A stretch of 38,307 nucleotides of DNA from a virus. Taxonomy: Duplodnaviria; Heunggongvirae; Uroviricota; Caudoviricetes. The stretch lies in the IMG/VR virus record IMGVR_UViG_2859827302_000002; one strand, 5' to 3'. How positions within the stretch are numbered: the first letter of the stretch is position 1; every line of letters begins with the position of its first letter. The notes beneath the pieces were generated by a model. The model was not told the origin of the DNA, did no database searches, and worked only from the letters and a program-made list of their open reading frames with translations. Shown here in pieces: positions 1,081 to 8,638 of the stretch. The position numbers were made by a program, and so were the translations under genes.

Positions 1081-2130
1081 ATGGCTAATACTGTAAAAAT
1101 ATCCAGTTGTGAGTTAATCAACGCCGACTGCCTGGAATTTATCCGGTCGTTACCCGAAAATTCTGTTGACCTGATAGTCACGGACCCGCCGTACTTTAAA
1201 GTGAAGCCTGAGGGCTGGGATAACCAGTGGAAGGGCGACGATGATTACCTGAAGTGGCTGGACCAGTGTCTGGCGCAGTTCTGGCGGGTGCTGAAACCTG
1301 CCGGAAGTCTTTACCTGTTCTGTGGTCATCGCCTGGCATCTGATATCGAAATCATGATGCGTGAACGCTTCAGTGTGCTGAACCATATTATCTGGGCAAA
1401 GCCGTCCGGACGCTGGAACGGGTGCAACAAGGAAAGCCTGCGGGCGTATTTCCCCGCCACAGAGCGCATTCTGTTCGCGGAACATTATCAGGGGCCGTAC
1501 CGCCCGAAAGATGATGGCTATGAGGCGAAGGGCAGGGTACTGAAACAGCATGTGATGGCCCCGCTGATTGCTTACTTTCGTGATGCGCGAGCTGCCCTGG
1601 GGATAACGGCAAAACAGATTGCAGATGCCACAGGAAAGAAAAACATGGTGTCGCACTGGTTCAGTGCCAGTCAGTGGCAGCTACCGAACGAAAGCGATTA
1701 TCTGAAATTACAGTCGCTGTTTGCCCGGGTGGCAGAAGAGAAACATCAGCGGGGAGAACTGGAAAAGTCCCATTACCAACTGGTCAGCACATACAGTGAG
1801 CTGAGCCGGCAGTATGTGGAGCTGCAGAGTGAATATAAAAATTTGCGGAGGTATTTCGGTGTGACGGTGCAGGTGCCGTACACCGATGTGTGGACGTATA
1901 AACCGGTGCAGTACTATCCAGGGAAACATCCGTGCGAAAAACCGGCAGAAATGTTGCAGCAGATAATCAACGCGAGCAGTCGTCCGGGAGACCAGGTTGC
2001 AGATTTTTTTATGGGCTCAGGTTCAACGGTAAAAGCGGCACTGGCGCTCGGGCGTCGTGCGATTGGCGTTGAACTGGAGACCGGACGTTTTGAGCAGACA
2101 GTCAGGGAAGTTCAGGATTTAATCGTTTGA
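1081..2130 (+). CDS. phage orphan DNA methyltransferase (N6-adenine/N4-cytosine class, DPPY motif)
   Basis: 349-aa ORF with DPPY catalytic motif (IVTDPPYF) near the N-terminus and an AdoMet-binding FFMGSGST motif near the C-terminus (beta-class order). Confidence 0.85.
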   Translation: MANTVKISSCELINADCLEFIRSLPENSVDLIVTDPPYFKVKPEGWDNQWKGDDDYLKWLDQCLAQFWRVLKPAGSLYLFCGHRLASDIEIMMRERFSVLNHIIWAKPSGRWNGCNKESLRAYFPATERILFAEHYQGPYRPKDDGYEAKGRVLKQHVMAPLIAYFRDARAALGITAKQIADATGKKNMVSHWFSASQWQLPNESDYLKLQSLFARVAEEKHQRGELEKSHYQLVSTYSELSRQYVELQSEYKNLRRYFGVTVQVPYTDVWTYKPVQYYPGKHPCEKPAEMLQQIINASSRPGDQVADFFMGSGSTVKAALALGRRAIGVELETGRFEQTVREVQDLIV

Positions 2131-2179
2131 AACGGATGAGATTGCAGAATTAATTACGCACCATTATTATTCTGCTCCC

Positions 2180-2255
2180 GGCCCTTTAGCTCAGTGGTGA
2201 GAGCGAGCGACTCATAATCGCCAGGTCGCTGGTTCAAATCCAGCAAGGGCCACCA
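2180..2255 (+). tRNA. ileZ: tRNA-Ile2 (anticodon CAU, lysidine type; Met not excluded from sequence alone)
   Basis: Cloverleaf readable by eye: acceptor ggccctt/aagggcc, D-arm gctc..gagc, anticodon loop cuCAUaa, T-loop ttcaaat, encoded CCA. Near-identical to E. coli ileX/ileY as I recall it. Symbol by analogy to lambdoid/Stx-phage tRNA clusters. Confidence 0.85.
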
Positions 2256-2262
2256 TCACATA

Positions 2263-2339
2263 CCGCCATTAGCTCATCAGGAAAGAGCGCCAGCCTTCGA
2301 AGCTGGTTGCGCGGAGTTCGGGTCCCCGAAGGCGGTTCA
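2263..2339 (+). tRNA. argN: tRNA-Arg (anticodon UCG)
   Basis: D-arm gctc/gagc, anticodon stem ccagc/gctgg with loop cuUCGaa, T-loop ttcgggt; acceptor stem has one mismatch and no encoded CCA. Symbol by analogy, uncertain. Confidence 0.7.
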
Positions 2340-2352
2340 TTATCTGTATCCT

Positions 2353-2429
2353 GCGTTGTTAGCTCAGCCGGACAGAGCAATTGCCTTCTAAGCAATCGGT
2401 CACTGGTTCGAATACAGTAGAACGCGCCA
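2353..2429 (+). tRNA. argO: tRNA-Arg (anticodon UCU, reads rare AGA/AGG)
   Basis: D-arm gctc/gagc, anticodon stem attgc/gcaat with loop cuUCUaa, T-loop ttcgaat, encoded CCA at 2427..2429. Confidence 0.8.
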
Positions 2430-2444
2430 CACTTATTTTCCCTG

Positions 2445-2468
2445 GCTCGCTTTTGCGGGCTTTTTTTT
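2445..2468 (+). terminator. intrinsic terminator after tRNA cluster
   Basis: 6-bp stem gctcgc/gcgggc with tttt loop, followed by T8. Confidence 0.55.
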
Positions 2469-2684
2469 AAATGTCTCACAATTCAGGCGGTTGACTGTTG
2501 TCTGGTTTGCGGGGAGTTTGTTAAAAGAAACTGGCATGGTGAATCCCCCTGTGCGGAGGGGCAATCAGCAACTGGTGTTTTGTCACCGACCCTTATCCTT
2601 TCTGTGCGGGTTCAGGTGCTGATACTGAACTCACCGGGAGGCACCCGGCACCATGCAATGGCACATAGCGCCACTCTCCAGCCC

Positions 2685-2745
2685 CTCTCCGGAGGGGCTT
2701 TCTTATGGACAAAAAAAGCCCGCGCTGGGAGACGCGGGCGGCAAG
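2685..2745. terminator. pair of back-to-back hairpins: plus-strand terminator-like (2685..2712) and minus-strand terminator-like (2716..2745)
   Basis: agcccctc-tccg-gaggggct followed by T-rich run; then A7-gcccgcg-ctgggaga-cgcgggc, which reads as hairpin plus T7 on the minus strand. Confidence 0.4.
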
Positions 2746-2932
2746 GAATAAACAACAAAACGTGAAGTAATATTTCAGCTGGTGAATAATATCCGACAGT
2801 AATCACTCTGCGCAATAGCGCGGCCTTTTTCATATTGCGGGCTGTTGTCTATCTTCTGCCATTGTCCTGTAACTTCCGGACTTCAGCCCGCTCCTCATGT
2901 TACTCACAATATTATCCAGGCCGGGAGGATTC

Positions 2933-3166
2933 ATGGCATTTAAACACTATGACGTGGTCAGGGCGGCGTCGCCGTCAGACCTTGCGGAGCGACTGACACA
3001 AAAACTGAAGGAGGGGTGGCAGCCATTTGGCAGTCCGGTGGCCATCACGCCTTATACCCTGATGCAGGCCATTGCGGCGGAAGGTGATGTCACCACACCT
3101 GTGGTGGTGAAGCCGTCGGATGGAGAAGGCGCAGTTATCAGCACCACCAGCAACCCGGAGTATTAA
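2933..3166 (+). CDS. DUF1737-like N-terminal domain ORF of nanS-p-type esterase, separated from the esterase body by an in-frame TAA
   Basis: MAFKHYDVVRAASPSDLAERLTQKLKEGWQPFGSPVAITPYTLMQ; same frame as the downstream esterase ORF, with TAA at 3164..3166. Confidence 0.6.
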   Translation: MAFKHYDVVRAASPSDLAERLTQKLKEGWQPFGSPVAITPYTLMQAIAAEGDVTTPVVVKPSDGEGAVISTTSNPEY

Positions 3167-3199
3167 TTTGTTGTTGCCCTGGCCGGGCAGTCAAACGGT

Positions 3200-4894
3200 A
3201 TGGCGTATGGTGAAGGGCTTCCGCTTCCGGATTCATACGATGCGCCCCATCCGCGTATTAAACAGCTGGCGCGTCGCAGCACTGTCACGCCGGGTGGTGC
3301 GTCCTGTAACTACAATGACATTATTCCTGCGGACCACTGCCTGCATGATGTTCAGGATTTGAGTAAGTTTTCACACCCGAAAGCCAGCGCAGCTCAGTAT
3401 GGATGCGTGGGGCAGGGATTACATATCGCGAAGAAATTGTTGCCGTTTATTCCGGCGAATGCCGGTATTCTTCTGGTTCCGTGCTGCCGTGGTGGTTCTG
3501 CATTTTTGGCGGGCGATGAAGGTACCTTCAGCGAATCCACCGGCGCAAGCGAGACCTCGGCACGCTGGGGTGTAGATAAGCCACTGTACAAGGACCTGCT
3601 TACCCGTACTCAGGCCGCACTGAAGGCTAACCCTAAAAATATTCTGCTTGCAGTGGTCTGGATGCAGGGCGAGTTTGATTTGAAACAGGGTGCATACGCC
3701 ACTCAGCCGGGGCTGTTTGATTCCATGGTGGAAAAATATCGTTCTGACCTGTCGGAATTCGGAGGTCAGTGTCTCGGGGGCTCTCCGTCATCGGTTCCCT
3801 GGATTTGTGGCGACACGACCTACTACTGGAAGCAGACTTATTCTTCGCAATACGATGCGGTGTATGGTGCATACAAGACGAAATCCGCAAAAAAAATCTT
3901 CTTTGTGCCGTTTATGACGGATGAAAACGGGCGAAATGTGGGTACCAACGAGCCGTCAGAAGATCCGGATGTTGCGGATATTGGGTATTACGGAGCCGGT
4001 GGTCGAACGGACGCCAAAACCTGGACGACGGCCGACCGTAAAACGCATTTTGGATCATGGGCACGTCGTGGGATTATTTCCGACCGTCTGGCAACGGCGA
4101 TTCTTGTGCATGCCGGGAGAACCGCTGAATTCATTACCGGAAAACAGCCTGATACGGTGAAGCCCACCGGACCTTCCGGTGAAGGTACGGAGAGAGAGCC
4201 GGAACCCCCGGTCAGTAACCGAACCCTGATGAGTCTGCTGGCGTCCGGCGAAGACCTGGCATCACAGGGCTGGCGCTATTATCACAAACCGGCGAGCGGA
4301 GACAATGTTAACAAAAACATTGCTGAAGCGGTGGTCAGTGATGCGGGGGCTACGGGAGGTAAGGCCCTGCAACTGAATAAACCGGAAAACCACATCTGGT
4401 TTCTGGAGCATGATGCAGCCGGACAGGGAGTGGAGTTACTGAAGAAGGGGGGGCGTGTGAGCGTACGGTTTAAGTTGCCGGGTTCACTGGTGCCGAATCG
4501 GTTTGCCCTGGGCATTTACTGGCAGTTGTCGTCCCTGCCGGAGGGAGTGACGCTGGCAGAGGAAGGCAACGACATGCTGATGTCCTTCTTCCTGCAGACG
4601 GATGCGACGAACCTGAACGCGATGTACCACAAGAAGCCGAATGCGAAGCTGGATACGTTCGGGGTCTTTGATAACGGATGGCACACACTGGCTTTTGAGT
4701 TTGCCGGAAACAACAGCATTCAGGTGACGCCGGTACTGGATGAGAAACGGGGGACGCCGTTCACACTGGTGAAATATCCGGCATCAGGGGCGGCGGACAA
4801 ACTGCAACTGACAGGCATATCAAAGGCGGCGACATATACGCTGCTGATTGACAGTGTGAAGGTGGAAGTGAACAACGCGGATGCCGCGGCATGA
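3200..4894 (+). CDS. prophage sialate O-acetylesterase (NanS-p-like, SASA/DUF303) body; likely nonfunctional or needs readthrough
   Basis: 564-aa ORF; frame is open from 3167 and encodes FVVALAGQSNGMAYGEG (the serine-motif region) before the first ATG at 3200. Confidence 0.7.
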   Translation: MAYGEGLPLPDSYDAPHPRIKQLARRSTVTPGGASCNYNDIIPADHCLHDVQDLSKFSHPKASAAQYGCVGQGLHIAKKLLPFIPANAGILLVPCCRGGSAFLAGDEGTFSESTGASETSARWGVDKPLYKDLLTRTQAALKANPKNILLAVVWMQGEFDLKQGAYATQPGLFDSMVEKYRSDLSEFGGQCLGGSPSSVPWICGDTTYYWKQTYSSQYDAVYGAYKTKSAKKIFFVPFMTDENGRNVGTNEPSEDPDVADIGYYGAGGRTDAKTWTTADRKTHFGSWARRGIISDRLATAILVHAGRTAEFITGKQPDTVKPTGPSGEGTEREPEPPVSNRTLMSLLASGEDLASQGWRYYHKPASGDNVNKNIAEAVVSDAGATGGKALQLNKPENHIWFLEHDAAGQGVELLKKGGRVSVRFKLPGSLVPNRFALGIYWQLSSLPEGVTLAEEGNDMLMSFFLQTDATNLNAMYHKKPNAKLDTFGVFDNGWHTLAFEFAGNNSIQVTPVLDEKRGTPFTLVKYPASGAADKLQLTGISKAATYTLLIDSVKVEVNNADAAA

Positions 4895-5029
4895 TAAAAA
4901 AAGCCGCCAGCGGCAGGAACGGAAGCTGGCGGAGGTAATCCCAATGGAGAATGTAAAGAAAAGATGCTTTCGTATATCGGTTTTTTAAATGAAAACAGTT
5001 CTCATTGTCAACCATAACGGTAAGAAACT

Positions 5030-5164
5030 ATGACATTTATTCATCAGGTGATGCTGTACTTCTGTACGGCGGTCTGTGTGCTGTATCTTCTTTCGGGTGG
5101 GTACAGGGCAGTGCGCGATTTCTGGCGCAGGCAGATTGATAAAAGGGCCGCAGAGAAAATCTGA
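5030..5164 (+). pseudogene. small membrane protein gene interrupted at its 3' end by IS600-like insertion
   Basis: ATG 5030, hydrophobic segment MLYFCTAVCVLYLL; stop is supplied by the IS terminus tga at 5162. After removing the IS and one copy of the duplication the frame continues at 6429..6491 to a 64-aa product. Confidence 0.45.
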
Positions 5165-5204
5165 GGTGTACTGGCAATAGCGGACACTACCATTTGTTCT
5201 TTTT

Positions 5205-6023
5205 TTAAGCAGCCATCTGATGATACTTTTCCCTGAAGGCTGCCGGGGAGATATTCCCCAGACGAGAGTGACGACGCTGACGATTGTAGAAAATCTCAAT
5301 GTATTCCCGTATTACTGAGATGGCTTCATCCCGGTTATTAAAACGATAGTGGCTCAGGCTCTCATTTTTCAGCGTTCCCCAGAAGCTTTCCATCGGAGCG
5401 TTGTCGTAACAGTTACCTTTACGCGACATTGATGTTTTCAGACCAGACTGCTCCTGTATGACCCGGTAATCGTATGCGCAGTACTGTGAACCTCGATCAG
5501 AGTGGTGGATTAGCCCGGCAGGTGGGCGCTGGCTCCTGAGCGCCATAAACAGGGCTTTACCTGTCAGCTCTTTTGTCATGCGCTCTCCCATGGCGTAGCC
5601 GACAATTTCGCACGTATAAACATCTTTGATGCCAGCGAGGTACAACCATCCCTCCTGAGTGGCAACATACGTCAGGTCCGCCACCCAGACCTGATTTGGT
5701 GCTGTAGGAGCGAACGTCTGGTTCAGCAGATTTGGCGCAACTGGCAGATTGTGGTTCGGGTTCGTAGTCGCTCTGAACTTGCGTTTCTGCTTACAGCGTA
5801 GCCTTAGCTCCTTACGAAGACGTGCCAGTCGGTCACGACCAACGATGATGCCATTCTCTGCCAGCTCCGTCTGGAGCCGCCGGGTTCCATATGTTTCGCG
5901 AGTGCGGATATGTGCCACCTTAATCTCCAGTTTTAGCCGCTCATCACTTTGTTTTCTGTCTGAGGGTTCATGCTGTACCCAGTTGTAATAACCGCTCCTG
6001 GATACACCAAATACCTGACACAT
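5205..6023 (-). CDS. IS3-family transposase OrfB (DDE), normally made as OrfAB by -1 frameshift
   Basis: 272-aa ORF with HHSDRGSQY and GNCYDNAPMESFW motifs. Confidence 0.85.
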   Translation of the reverse strand: MCQVFGVSRSGYYNWVQHEPSDRKQSDERLKLEIKVAHIRTRETYGTRRLQTELAENGIIVGRDRLARLRKELRLRCKQKRKFRATTNPNHNLPVAPNLLNQTFAPTAPNQVWVADLTYVATQEGWLYLAGIKDVYTCEIVGYAMGERMTKELTGKALFMALRSQRPPAGLIHHSDRGSQYCAYDYRVIQEQSGLKTSMSRKGNCYDNAPMESFWGTLKNESLSHYRFNNRDEAISVIREYIEIFYNRQRRHSRLGNISPAAFREKYHQMAA

Positions 6024-6058
6024 CGCTTCAATGGGAAATTGTTGTCGCCATTGTTCGA

Positions 6059-6361
6059 TTAACGCGTATTTTTCAGCGACTCCTGTGCAAAATACGCTGT
6101 TGCTTTTTTTAATATATCTCGCTCAAGGCGAGCTTCATTTAACGCCTTACGCAGTTGCAGAATTTCAGATTCCAGTTCAGCCACCGTGCGGGAACCAGGA
6201 GTACCGAGCCCTTTTCTGGCGGCGGTAACCCATTGTCCTAAAGTGCCTTCAGGAAGGGATAATCGGGAAGCGCCTTCACTGATCGAAAGTTGATTTTCAA
6301 GAACCGTTCTGACAGCTTCGGCTTTGAACTCTTTAGAGTAACGTTGGTTTTTTCTGCTCAT
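6059..6361 (-). CDS. IS3-family transposase OrfA (HTH)
   Basis: 100-aa ORF MSRKNQRYSKEFKAEAVRTV... with HTH and leucine-zipper-like C-terminus. Confidence 0.85.
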   Translation of the reverse strand: MSRKNQRYSKEFKAEAVRTVLENQLSISEGASRLSLPEGTLGQWVTAARKGLGTPGSRTVAELESEILQLRKALNEARLERDILKKATAYFAQESLKNTR

Positions 6362-6516
6362 TATTAGCTCCTTCTGATGCCATTCTATTTCAGGAAGGAG
6401 TGTCCGTTAAACTCAGGCTACCTCAATCAGCGCCAGTCAGTCAGCCGGAGCAAAAACAGAAGCCCCACTCATTCCGGAACAACCTTCTTAATAACCCATT
6501 TCAACGAGAAAATCCT

Positions 6517-6861: not shown

Positions 6862-7077
6862 ATGTACCAGATGGAAAAAATCACAACAGGTGTGTCATAC
6901 ACCACGTCAGCGGTGGGAACGGGCTACTGGTTCCTGCAGTTGCTGGACAGGGTTTCCCCGTCTCTGTGGGCGGCAATAGGCGTACTGGGGAGTCTGCTGT
7001 TTGGGCTGCTGACATATCTGACTAACCTGTATTTCAAAATCAGAGAGGACCGTCGTAAGGCTGCACGGGGAGAGTAA
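6862..7077 (+). CDS. class II holin/pinholin (S21-like) with dual-start motif
   Basis: 71 aa, two TM segments ([32 protein letters not shown]), charged C-terminus, MYQMEK alternative starts. Confidence 0.8.
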
Positions 7078-7769: not shown

Positions 7770-8303
7770 ATGAACGCAAAAATCAGATACGGCCTGTCGG
7801 CTGCCGTTCTGGCGCTGATTGCCGCTGGTGCGCCTGCGCCTGACATTCTCGACCAGTTTCTGGATGAAAAGGAAGGTAACCACACCACGGCATACCGTGA
7901 TGGCGCGGGTATCTGGACCATCTGCCGCGGTGCCATCCTGGTGGATGGCAAACCTGTCGTTCCGGGCATGAAGTTGTCGAAGGAAAAATGCGACCGGGTT
8001 AACGCCATTGAGCGTGATAAGGCGCTGGCATGGGTGGAGAAAAACATCAGAGTGCCATTGAGCGAACCCCAGAAAGCGGGGATCGCGTCATTCTGTCCGT
8101 ACAACATTGGCCCCGGTAAGTGTTTCAGCTCAACGTTTTACCGGAAACTGAACGCCGGAGACCGGAAAGGTGCATGTGCTGAAATTCGTCGCTGGATATA
8201 TGACGGCGGCAGGGACTGTCGGAACCGCTCAAATAACTGTTACGGGCAGGTATCGCGGCGTGACCAGGAGAGCGCGCTGGCGTGCTGGGGTATCGACAGG
8301 TAG
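7770..8303 (+). CDS. SAR endolysin (phage lysozyme R, GH24-like)
   Basis: 177 aa, N-terminal signal-anchor-release segment (LSAAVLALIAAGAPAP) followed by lysozyme-like domain. Confidence 0.85.
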   Translation: MNAKIRYGLSAAVLALIAAGAPAPDILDQFLDEKEGNHTTAYRDGAGIWTICRGAILVDGKPVVPGMKLSKEKCDRVNAIERDKALAWVEKNIRVPLSEPQKAGIASFCPYNIGPGKCFSSTFYRKLNAGDRKGACAEIRRWIYDGGRDCRNRSNNCYGQVSRRDQESALACWGIDR

Positions 8304-8523: not shown

Positions 8524-8637
8524 ATGAAAGGCATTGAAGTGGAGACGCCAGCCAGTCTGGATTTAACAAGAGCGGCAGCTTTTGCCATTCGTATTGTGGC
8601 AATTGCTGTTCTGGTCTGGGCAATCCGTTGGTGGTGA
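8524..8637 (+). CDS. possible 37-aa single-TM peptide immediately upstream of Rz
   Basis: ATG 8524 to TGA 8635..8637 (MKGIEVETPASLDLTRAAAFAIRIVAIAVLVWAIRWW); below the ORF-track size cutoff. Confidence 0.25.
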   Translation: MKGIEVETPASLDLTRAAAFAIRIVAIAVLVWAIRWW

Positions 8638-8638
8638 T

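Follow-up and report, generated by a model that had tools for sequence, protein, structure and literature searches.

The spacer between the tRNA cluster and nanS-p of a lambdoid prophage very probably holds a known type of convergent small-RNA gene pair beside an unoccupied cargo junction

In this study, we examined the interval between the tRNA cluster and the nanS-p gene in a 38,307-nucleotide stretch of Caudoviricetes DNA (IMG/VR record IMGVR_UViG_2859827302_000002; hereafter, the window). The interval, positions 2430-2932 (503 bp), runs from the end of argO to the ATG at 2933 of the DUF1737/nanS-p gene and is therefore exactly the tRNA-to-nanS-p spacer. We conclude that it is very probably a standard noncoding spacer of lambdoid late regions, with a convergent pair of Hfq-binding small RNA (sRNA) genes, one of the STnc100 family and one of the EcOnc08/21 type, beside the point at which related phages carry cargo genes (morons). 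An earlier note on this DNA had read the interval as an empty toxin slot, in which some 450 bp of hairpins and terminators fill the place held by stxAB in Shiga toxin (Stx)-converting phages, and had taken the prophage for an stx-negative relative or a remnant. As everything in the spacer has already been described for prophage Sp4 of Escherichia coli O157:H7 Sakai, and the sRNA pair occupies the same place in Stx phages and in many toxin-free prophages, the finding is an ordinary one, already known, and carries little weight as a discovery; nothing indicates stx loss.

Results and discussion

A full-length STnc100 gene on the plus strand

The plus-strand gene at 2505-2710 matches Rfam RF02076 (STnc100) over model positions 1-206 of 206 at 143.2 bits, well over the gathering threshold of 47 (E ~1e-33), and all helices of the family are kept in the window copy, which shows no important difference from the model. 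Inside the closing stem of its core (2534-2541/2648-2655) stand, in order, an invariant hairpin, a hypervariable arm (~2560-2607), a stem with strong covariation and another invariant hairpin; beyond the core come a variable linker and then the terminator.

Diverged copies were collected by scanning species-representative genomes for an invariant 25-mer, which was located at 25 loci in no fewer than 14 genera, and covariation was evaluated in a set of 36 core sequences from at least 14 genera, with slid partners and 500 shuffles as controls. Standard pairs occupy 97.2% of cells in these 36 copies, compared with 43-45% when partners are slid, and compensatory changes occur in 12 of the 25 core pairs. 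Cells altered on both sides number 76, against 8-18 with slid partners, and none of the 500 shuffles matched the observed values. The window's own copy pairs in every helix. Fold z-scores are -2.1 for the plus strand (2505-2710) and -2.4 for the minus strand (2704-2990), and a terminator scan of 2000-3300 returned five terminator-like hairpins (1.3 +/- 1.2 in shuffles).

Members of the family also lie directly after stx2B in an Stx2a phage that integrates in yecE (L001, 3534-3748), after stx1B in an Stx1 phage (L002, 3375-3584) and at the equivalent site in phi24B (L003, 3303-3508). The E. coli prophage loci retrieved as spacer relatives, eight in number (L004-L011), each carry one as well, that of enteropathogenic E. 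coli (EPEC; L011) scoring 41 bits, below gathering. The window allele is itself a mosaic of two common alleles, resembling those of E. coli cM8a (L007) and a uropathogenic E. coli prophage (L004) up to ~2655 and those of Sp4 and the Stx1 phage across the linker (2656-2679). The STnc100 allele shows no apparent association with the type of cargo: one and the same allele is found with no cargo, with TerB and with a methyltransferase.

A convergent partner on the minus strand

Facing STnc100, the minus-strand gene differs from its Sp4 counterpart at ~6 positions over 2711-2932, counted on the printed alignment (~97% identity). Its 3' end is identical at 50 of 54 positions to E2348C_1409.E2348C_1408.IGR, an EPEC sRNA candidate found with Hfq by ligating and sequencing interacting RNAs (RIL-seq; Pearl Mizrahi et al. 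2021). The two terminator hairpins, 2680-2699 on the plus strand and 2739-2718 on the minus strand, abut with 18 bases between them, and the minus-strand hairpin shows a compensatory change in the prophage of a deer isolate (L006), GCCCGCG/CGCGGGC becoming GCCCGCA/TGCGGGC.

AsxR and AgvB (EcOnc01-03) occupy the same place in the same orientation, as minus-strand dyad members back to back with the STnc100 terminator, but they measure 51-60 nt, compared with ~271 nt for the Sakai homologue of the window's RNA. Membership of the window's RNA in this group was considered and rejected because the ~42-nt 3' module that defines these anti-sRNAs is missing from the window (0 matches at up to 3 mismatches). 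The Rfam models for AsxR and AgvB (RF02703/RF02702) likewise gave no gathering-score match in the whole window and none at E<=10 in 2400-3000, and similarity to EcOnc03 is confined to a 16-column terminator match.

Correspondence with Sakai Sp4 and other published loci

Tree et al. (2014; PMC4104026) described the region downstream of PR' as one that tolerates morons and carries convergent sRNA genes (a "convergent sRNA dyad at the moron site"), with EcOnc27 and AsxR (EcOnc02) 3' of stx2B in Sp5 as an example and similar convergent pairs in Sp3, Sp4, Sp9, Sp10, Sp11, Sp15 and Sp17, a description repeated in a later review (PMC7873438). For Sp4, their Table S2 lists EcOnc05 on the plus strand (1179806-1179914, ~222 nt) and EcOnc08 with EcOnc21 on the minus strand (1179938-1180101, ~271 nt), and both EcOnc05 in Sp4 and EcOnc27 in Sp5 have support from Northern blots and from Hfq crosslinking and analysis of cDNA (Hfq-CRAC) (PMC4104026). 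STnc100 has further been placed 75 nt downstream of stx2 and equated with EcOnc27/sRNA103 (PMC12370729, PMC12711010).

In the Sakai Sp4 record, 489 bp separate ileZ1-argN1-argO1 from the nanS-p homologue ECs_1088, and stx is lacking, as it is in the window. Sp4 and window positions 2163-3297 form one collinear alignment that takes in the tRNAs, the terminator, STnc100, the convergent partner and the start of nanS-p, and the two spacers are ~97% identical apart from one variable STnc100 arm (window ~2570-2605), where the window has a different, longer allele. On this alignment, the Rfam STnc100 match of Sp4 falls on window 2505-2710, the EcOnc05 Hfq-CRAC peak on 2566-2689 (+), the EcOnc08 peak on 2713-2785 (-) and the EcOnc21 peak on 2791-2876 (-). 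Sp4 differs from the window in its unrelated sequence downstream of nanS-p and in lacking the nonsense codon of the window's nanS-p. Sakai EcOnc52 could not be placed in the window, as the sequence that follows nanS-p is unrelated to that of Sp4.

In position, too, the pair agrees with the described dyads, lying 3' of Q/PR' and 5' of the lysis genes: 663-2200 matches the post-Q segment of the Stx2a phage and holin, lysozyme and Rz follow downstream, Q itself lying beyond the window and an insertion sequence (IS) fragment. Taken together with the oppositely oriented genes, their abutting terminators and the ~97% identity to the EcOnc05 and EcOnc08/21 dyad of Sp4, the locus is, judged by its sequence, a member of both the STnc100 family and the convergent dyad class.

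Loci of the Sp5, 933W and phi24B type share the upstream tRNA cluster and terminator, have an STnc100-family gene right after the cargo point and keep the nanS-p leader from 2808. They differ in carrying stx2AB, followed by the dyad of EcOnc27 (STnc100, sRNA103) and AsxR; in phi24B and 933W, the AsxR gene replaces window 2658-2807, and the two segments have no similarity. A second comparison concerns EPEC E2348/69, where PasD1 and PasD2 (Pearl Mizrahi et al. 2021) lie directly upstream of a sialate esterase gene on the same strand and are described as having an STnc100-related structure (Zhu, Shabalina and Storz, 2026 preprint). The PasD2 locus (L011) scores 41 bits against STnc100, below gathering, and has no BLAST-detectable similarity to window 2430-2932. 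Reading the window's plus-strand RNA as a PasD was rejected because window 2100-2921 has no BLAST match to that locus, in addition to the sub-threshold Rfam score.

The cargo junction and the question of toxin loss

The point at which relatives carry cargo can be placed to within a few bases. In the yecE-integrating Stx2a phage (L001), the left flank ends at window position 2467 and the right flank begins at 2472, and a stx2A+stx2B cassette of 1335 bp (2166-3500) stands in place of four window bases (2468-2471). At the same point, the uropathogenic prophage L004 carries 758 bp (1870-2627) with TerB and DUF3927, and the deer-isolate prophage L006 carries 1043 bp (1868-2910) with an S-adenosylmethionine-dependent methyltransferase, while the junction is without cargo in L007 and Sp4. 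The terminator of the tRNA cluster, which borders this point, is kept in the Stx2a phage, Sp4, L004, L006 and L007, and the phi24B record annotates a rho-independent terminator upstream of stx at the corresponding site. When a 131-base probe across the junction was compared with 5426 complete E. coli genomes, plus phages, the junction was uninterrupted in 1015 of the 5426 genomes, and all partial matches in E. coli genomes and phages broke at window 2464-2467. A search of GTDB species representatives for the exact 33-mer of the empty junction gave 0 matches and is uninformative, E. coli and Shigella together being one genome in that set. The actual slot is thus the few-base junction at 2464-2471, and not the 450 bp that the earlier note had seen as filling it.

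Best placed among the competing readings, and still very unlikely in our judgement, is that the spacer is the scar of stx loss, a former stxAB between the tRNAs and nanS-p having been deleted and structured noncoding debris left behind. The flanks do resemble those of stx in Stx2a phages, positions 2101-2467 being 90% identical to the Stx2a phage and 2472-3299 being 79-86% identical to Stx2a and Stx1 phages, so the synteny with Stx phages pointed out in the earlier note stands. The integration site used by an Stx2a phage, whose public record is named for its integration in yecE, fits the deletion reading too. The supposed debris, however, is itself part of Stx phages, where it lies intact downstream of stxB: those of the Stx2a and Stx1 types have the counterpart of window 2472-2932 between stxB and nanS-p, and a nine-sequence alignment shows that Stx2a, Stx1 and stx-negative phages have in common all DNA between TCACAATTCAG (window 2475) and the ATG of nanS-p, only phages of the phi24B/933W type differing. 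This DNA is therefore backbone and not a leftover in place of stx. The spacer is moreover ~97% identical to that of stx-negative Sp4 and only 79-90% identical to those of Stx phages; its closest relatives are Sakai Sp4, L007 and L004 (~96-97% identity), with no stx in the stretches examined around their spacers.

Searches for the toxin itself point the same way. Tblastn with Stx1A/B and Stx2A/B against the whole window gave nothing below E 0.3, and short-word blastn with whole stx cassettes gave nothing at E<=1e-3. No stxA or stxB lies between the tRNA cluster/PR' and nanS-p, and no stx-derived protein or DNA sequence was found anywhere in the window. The earlier note was thus right that stx is absent, and of the two checks it had proposed, the comparison with stx flanks came out positive (79-90%) and the search for residual stx fragments negative, which leaves its suggestion of a remnant unsupported. 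Stx-negative phages with the same arrangement, which it had named as evidence against its own reading, are to a large extent what the uninterrupted junctions reveal. Its description of the prophage as an stx-negative relative within the lambdoid pool holds: the morphogenesis genes are 93-94% identical to those of Stx1a, Stx2a and Stx2c phages and equally to those of stx-negative phages. A search for an Stx phage that could be a close parent of the entire prophage found none closer than ~94% identity at 81% coverage, with stx-negative phages matching equally, which places the prophage in the common lambdoid pool, without a close Stx parent.

The bases at the junction allow some further discrimination. 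The empty junction reads T8-AAAT, and both the TerB and the methyltransferase cargo end in TTTTAAAT. If the T-run that closes the tRNA terminator recombined with a TTTTAAAT at a cargo's right end, T8-AAAT could in principle be the product, so that past deletion of some cargo is conceivable, which counts in favour of the deletion reading; the stx1 and stx2 cassettes, however, lack the TTTTAAAT motif of the empty junction at their right ends. The junction does not tell which way events ran, and if cargo was ever lost there, stx is not the likeliest candidate. The left ends of the cargos are also alike to some degree, as the TerB+DUF3927 cargo (L004, 1870-1905) and the methyltransferase cargo (L006, 1868-1905) open with the same leader, CCGCGCCACGCCCGGCGCATATCAACCACAGA, and the stx2 cassette (L001, 2166-2200) opens with the partly similar TATCTGCGCCGGG; different morons at this junction may share an upstream element.

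In practical terms, the absence of stx from the position between tRNAs and nanS-p is not evidence of toxin loss, the stretch is better annotated as two small-RNA genes (STnc100 and EcOnc08/21-type) than as empty DNA or hypothetical proteins, and the base-level junction at 2464-2471 can be used to classify the cargo that lambdoid prophages carry at the toxin position.

Other readings of the spacer

Scarcely credible to us is the view that the interval yields no RNA product and only insulates nanS-p and the lysis genes from transcription of the tRNAs, by means of terminators and a leader. Such a role would suit the terminator-like hairpins, of which the two strands have four to five, and the conserved hairpin with a T-run just 5' of nanS-p (2808-2830), in which the stem is invariant and the loop variable in all nine aligned phages, including phi24B. 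Insulation does not account, however, for the 120-nt core between the terminators, a covarying five-helix structure present in at least 14 genera and also found away from phage lysis genes, nor for the discrete Hfq-bound RNAs that the homologous Sakai and EPEC loci yield from both strands. The same evidence disposes of the earlier note's impression that the slot holds hairpins and terminators only, since a full-length STnc100 and a convergent sRNA gene, both already described, are present.

We give practically no credence to the remaining reading, that the interval encodes one or more small proteins: its only open reading frames (ORFs) are short (43-73 aa), and some pipelines do call minus-strand hypothetical proteins here (deposited examples being ORF b70 of an Stx1 phage and vb_24B_19c/20c, along with pseudogene fragments from the Prokaryotic Genome Annotation Pipeline, PGAP), but five of these ORFs have no Pfam match at E<=1, PGAP itself marks ORFs as frameshifted or with internal stops, close homologues carry frame-shifting indels (insertions of 2 to 15 bases, and an A-run within the longest ORF that is 6, 7 or 8 bases long, so that its reading frame is not conserved), and substitutions follow RNA pairing.

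A model for the convergent pair, and points against it

With two sRNA genes as the favoured account of the spacer, we propose that the tRNA cluster would end at its own intrinsic terminator, with the cargo point, occupied in relatives and empty here, coming next. The rightward STnc100-family RNA would then fold as a conserved multi-helix junction and end at its own terminator, and the leftward sRNA would start near or inside the 5' end of nanS-p, cross 2904-2711 and stop at the terminator abutting that of STnc100. In a lysogen, both sRNAs may be made from their own promoters and pair in trans with host or prophage mRNAs through the variable linker and arm, with Hfq, and the leftward RNA may in addition act in cis, antisense to the nanS-p leader or ribosome-binding site. 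During lytic growth, Q-modified polymerase would be expected to read through all of the spacer terminators, though in the window copy an IS fragment separates the spacer region from Q.

Several points weigh against this account. Expression and Hfq binding of both RNAs are documented for homologues in other strains, and the literature consulted names no targets for this STnc100 allele or for an EcOnc08/21-type RNA. Sequence alone does not fix the promoters or 5' ends of either gene. The STnc100 promoter candidates picked by eye, TTGCGG-N18-CACAAT (for an RNA of ~218 nt) and TTGACT-N17-GAGTTT (~181 nt), are both weak, as is the sole sigma-70-like site found by scanning the minus strand (2939-2911), which would give a start at ~2904 and an RNA of ~194 nt. 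The Northern size of ~271 nt in Sakai would instead put the minus-strand start at ~2981, antisense to the nanS-p start. EcOnc42 in Sp15 maps ~130 bp off the current Sakai record, probably owing to a shift between record versions. Finally, the prophage is decaying, with IS insertions and a nonsense codon in nanS-p, and late read-through may therefore no longer happen.

Features of the region

The features are collected in Table 1. ARAGORN finds three tRNA genes at 2180-2429, in agreement with Rfam tRNA matches, and the names ileZ, argN and argO follow the annotation of homologous records, including ileZ1/argN1/argO1 of the collinear Sakai Sp4. The order of tRNAs, hairpin-rich noncoding spacer, nanS-p, S, R and Rz that the earlier note had set out is kept, as ARAGORN, Pfam and the terminator scan agree.

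Table 1. Coordinates of the spacer, its two predicted sRNA genes and neighbouring features in the window
Feature	Position	Strand	Basis or remark
tRNA-Met/Ile2(CAT), ileZ	2180-2255	+	ARAGORN
tRNA-Arg(TCG), argN	2262-2338	+	ARAGORN
tRNA-Arg(TCT), argO	2353-2429	+	ARAGORN
tRNA-cluster intrinsic terminator (hairpin 2444-2461 + T8 run)	2444-2468	+	Terminator scan
Moron (cargo) junction, unoccupied in the window	2464-2471		Flank mapping to relatives
STnc100-family sRNA gene (Rfam RF02076), EcOnc05 allele of Sakai Sp4	2505-2710	+	cmscan
STnc100 conserved structured core	2534-2655	+	Covariation in diverged copies
STnc100 intrinsic terminator (hairpin 2680-2699 + U-rich tail)	2680-2706	+	Terminator scan; paired in Rfam alignment and alignment fold
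Minus-strand sRNA gene, homologue of Sakai EcOnc08/EcOnc21 (Sp4) and EcOnc42 (Sp15)	2711-2904	-	Sp4 alignment; 5' end uncertain, perhaps ~2981
Minus-strand sRNA intrinsic terminator (hairpin 2739-2718 + T7 run 2717-2711)	2711-2739	-	Terminator scan
Hairpin + T-run, terminator-like, just 5' of nanS-p leader	2808-2830	+	Terminator scan; also within minus-strand sRNA
nanS-p Shine-Dalgarno GGGAGGA and ATG	2923-2929; 2933-2935	+	Sequence; invariant in nine-sequence alignment
nanS-p (DUF1737+SASA+DUF6645)	2933-4894	+	Pfam
DUF1378	5030-5164		Order after nanS-p
IS600	~5165-6400	-	Between nanS-p and holin
DUF826			Between IS600 and holin S
Holin S	6862-7077		
DUF1327			Between holin S and lysozyme R
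Lysozyme R	7770-8303		
Rz	8582-9106		

State of the prophage

At the far end of the window, yecD (isochorismatase family; 37972-38307, minus strand) runs off the end, and a gene overlapping the yecD stop codon keeps its first 32 codons (37975-37880, minus strand) intact before homology breaks. We take this fragment to be yecE, from the E. coli K-12 gene order and the YecE N-terminus. A 32-codon fragment followed by unrelated DNA is the pattern expected from integration in yecE, and the sequence is thus consistent with the earlier note's placement of the prophage in that gene, a site it had named as one reported for Stx phages.

The nanS-p gene has an in-frame TAA at codon 78 (3164-3166), where the intact 653-aa orthologue of E. 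coli cM8a (L007) has TAC, and the two translations differ at 7 of 654 positions, terminal stop included. Probably nanS-p became a pseudogene not long ago, or it now consists of two separate pieces, DUF1737 and SASA+DUF6645. Further downstream, the copy of IS600, an element typical of Shigella and enteroinvasive E. coli backgrounds, is 99.8% identical to annotated IS600 and truncates DUF1378 at 44 of 59 profile positions. A fragment of an IS3-family transposase lies within 1-662 and ends at ~662, and homology to the late region of the Stx2a phage begins at 663, which corresponds to 147 bp downstream of Q in that phage. As homology starts only there, the Q/PR'/tR' segment is either gone or no longer in its place, and the late operon may have been separated from its promoter.

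Right after the nanS-p stop and convergent with nanS-p lies a minus-strand intrinsic terminator at 4896-4932 (GCCGCCAGC...GCTGGCGGC followed by T7). This segment is 80% conserved in Stx2a and Stx1 phages, and BLAST finds no similarity between it and the EPEC PasA locus; PasA/PasC have been placed between esterase and holin in the 2026 preprint of Zhu, Shabalina and Storz, which also relates STnc100 to EPEC PasD.

STnc100 beyond this locus

In some E. coli prophages, the stretch between the tRNAs and nanS-p holds STnc100 genes as a tandem pair, ~270 bp apart and differing in allele (L005, 1907-2584; L006, 2951-3647; L008, 9153-9845); the leading copy of L008 shares 99% identity with the window copy up to 2701. 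Superficieibacter and Erwinia (L016, L018, L023, L025, L028, L033, L035) have STnc100-like cores in tandem, 2 to 6 to an array and each with a different variable arm, the largest arrays, with up to six cores, lying in contigs of these two genera; the arrays sit where genes are sparse and IS elements occur. In Enterobacterales of at least 14 genera, both hairpin loops and the stems of the core are almost invariant, and one arm and the 3' linker are hypervariable.

This pattern of invariant core, variable arms and arrays would fit a constant protein-binding scaffold with exchangeable targeting segments. It is a speculative and rather improbable idea that STnc100 is more than an ordinary base-pairing sRNA, whether as such a scaffold or because the conserved scaffold and the tRNA terminator serve as a homology arm that moves cargo such as stx between co-resident prophages, and we regard the distribution of tandem arrays as a lead and not a result. 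In other genera, single copies of STnc100 are found upstream of phage holins (Atlantibacter and Phytobacter), beside OspG-like kinase genes (Citrobacter youngae) or among ordinary chromosomal genes.

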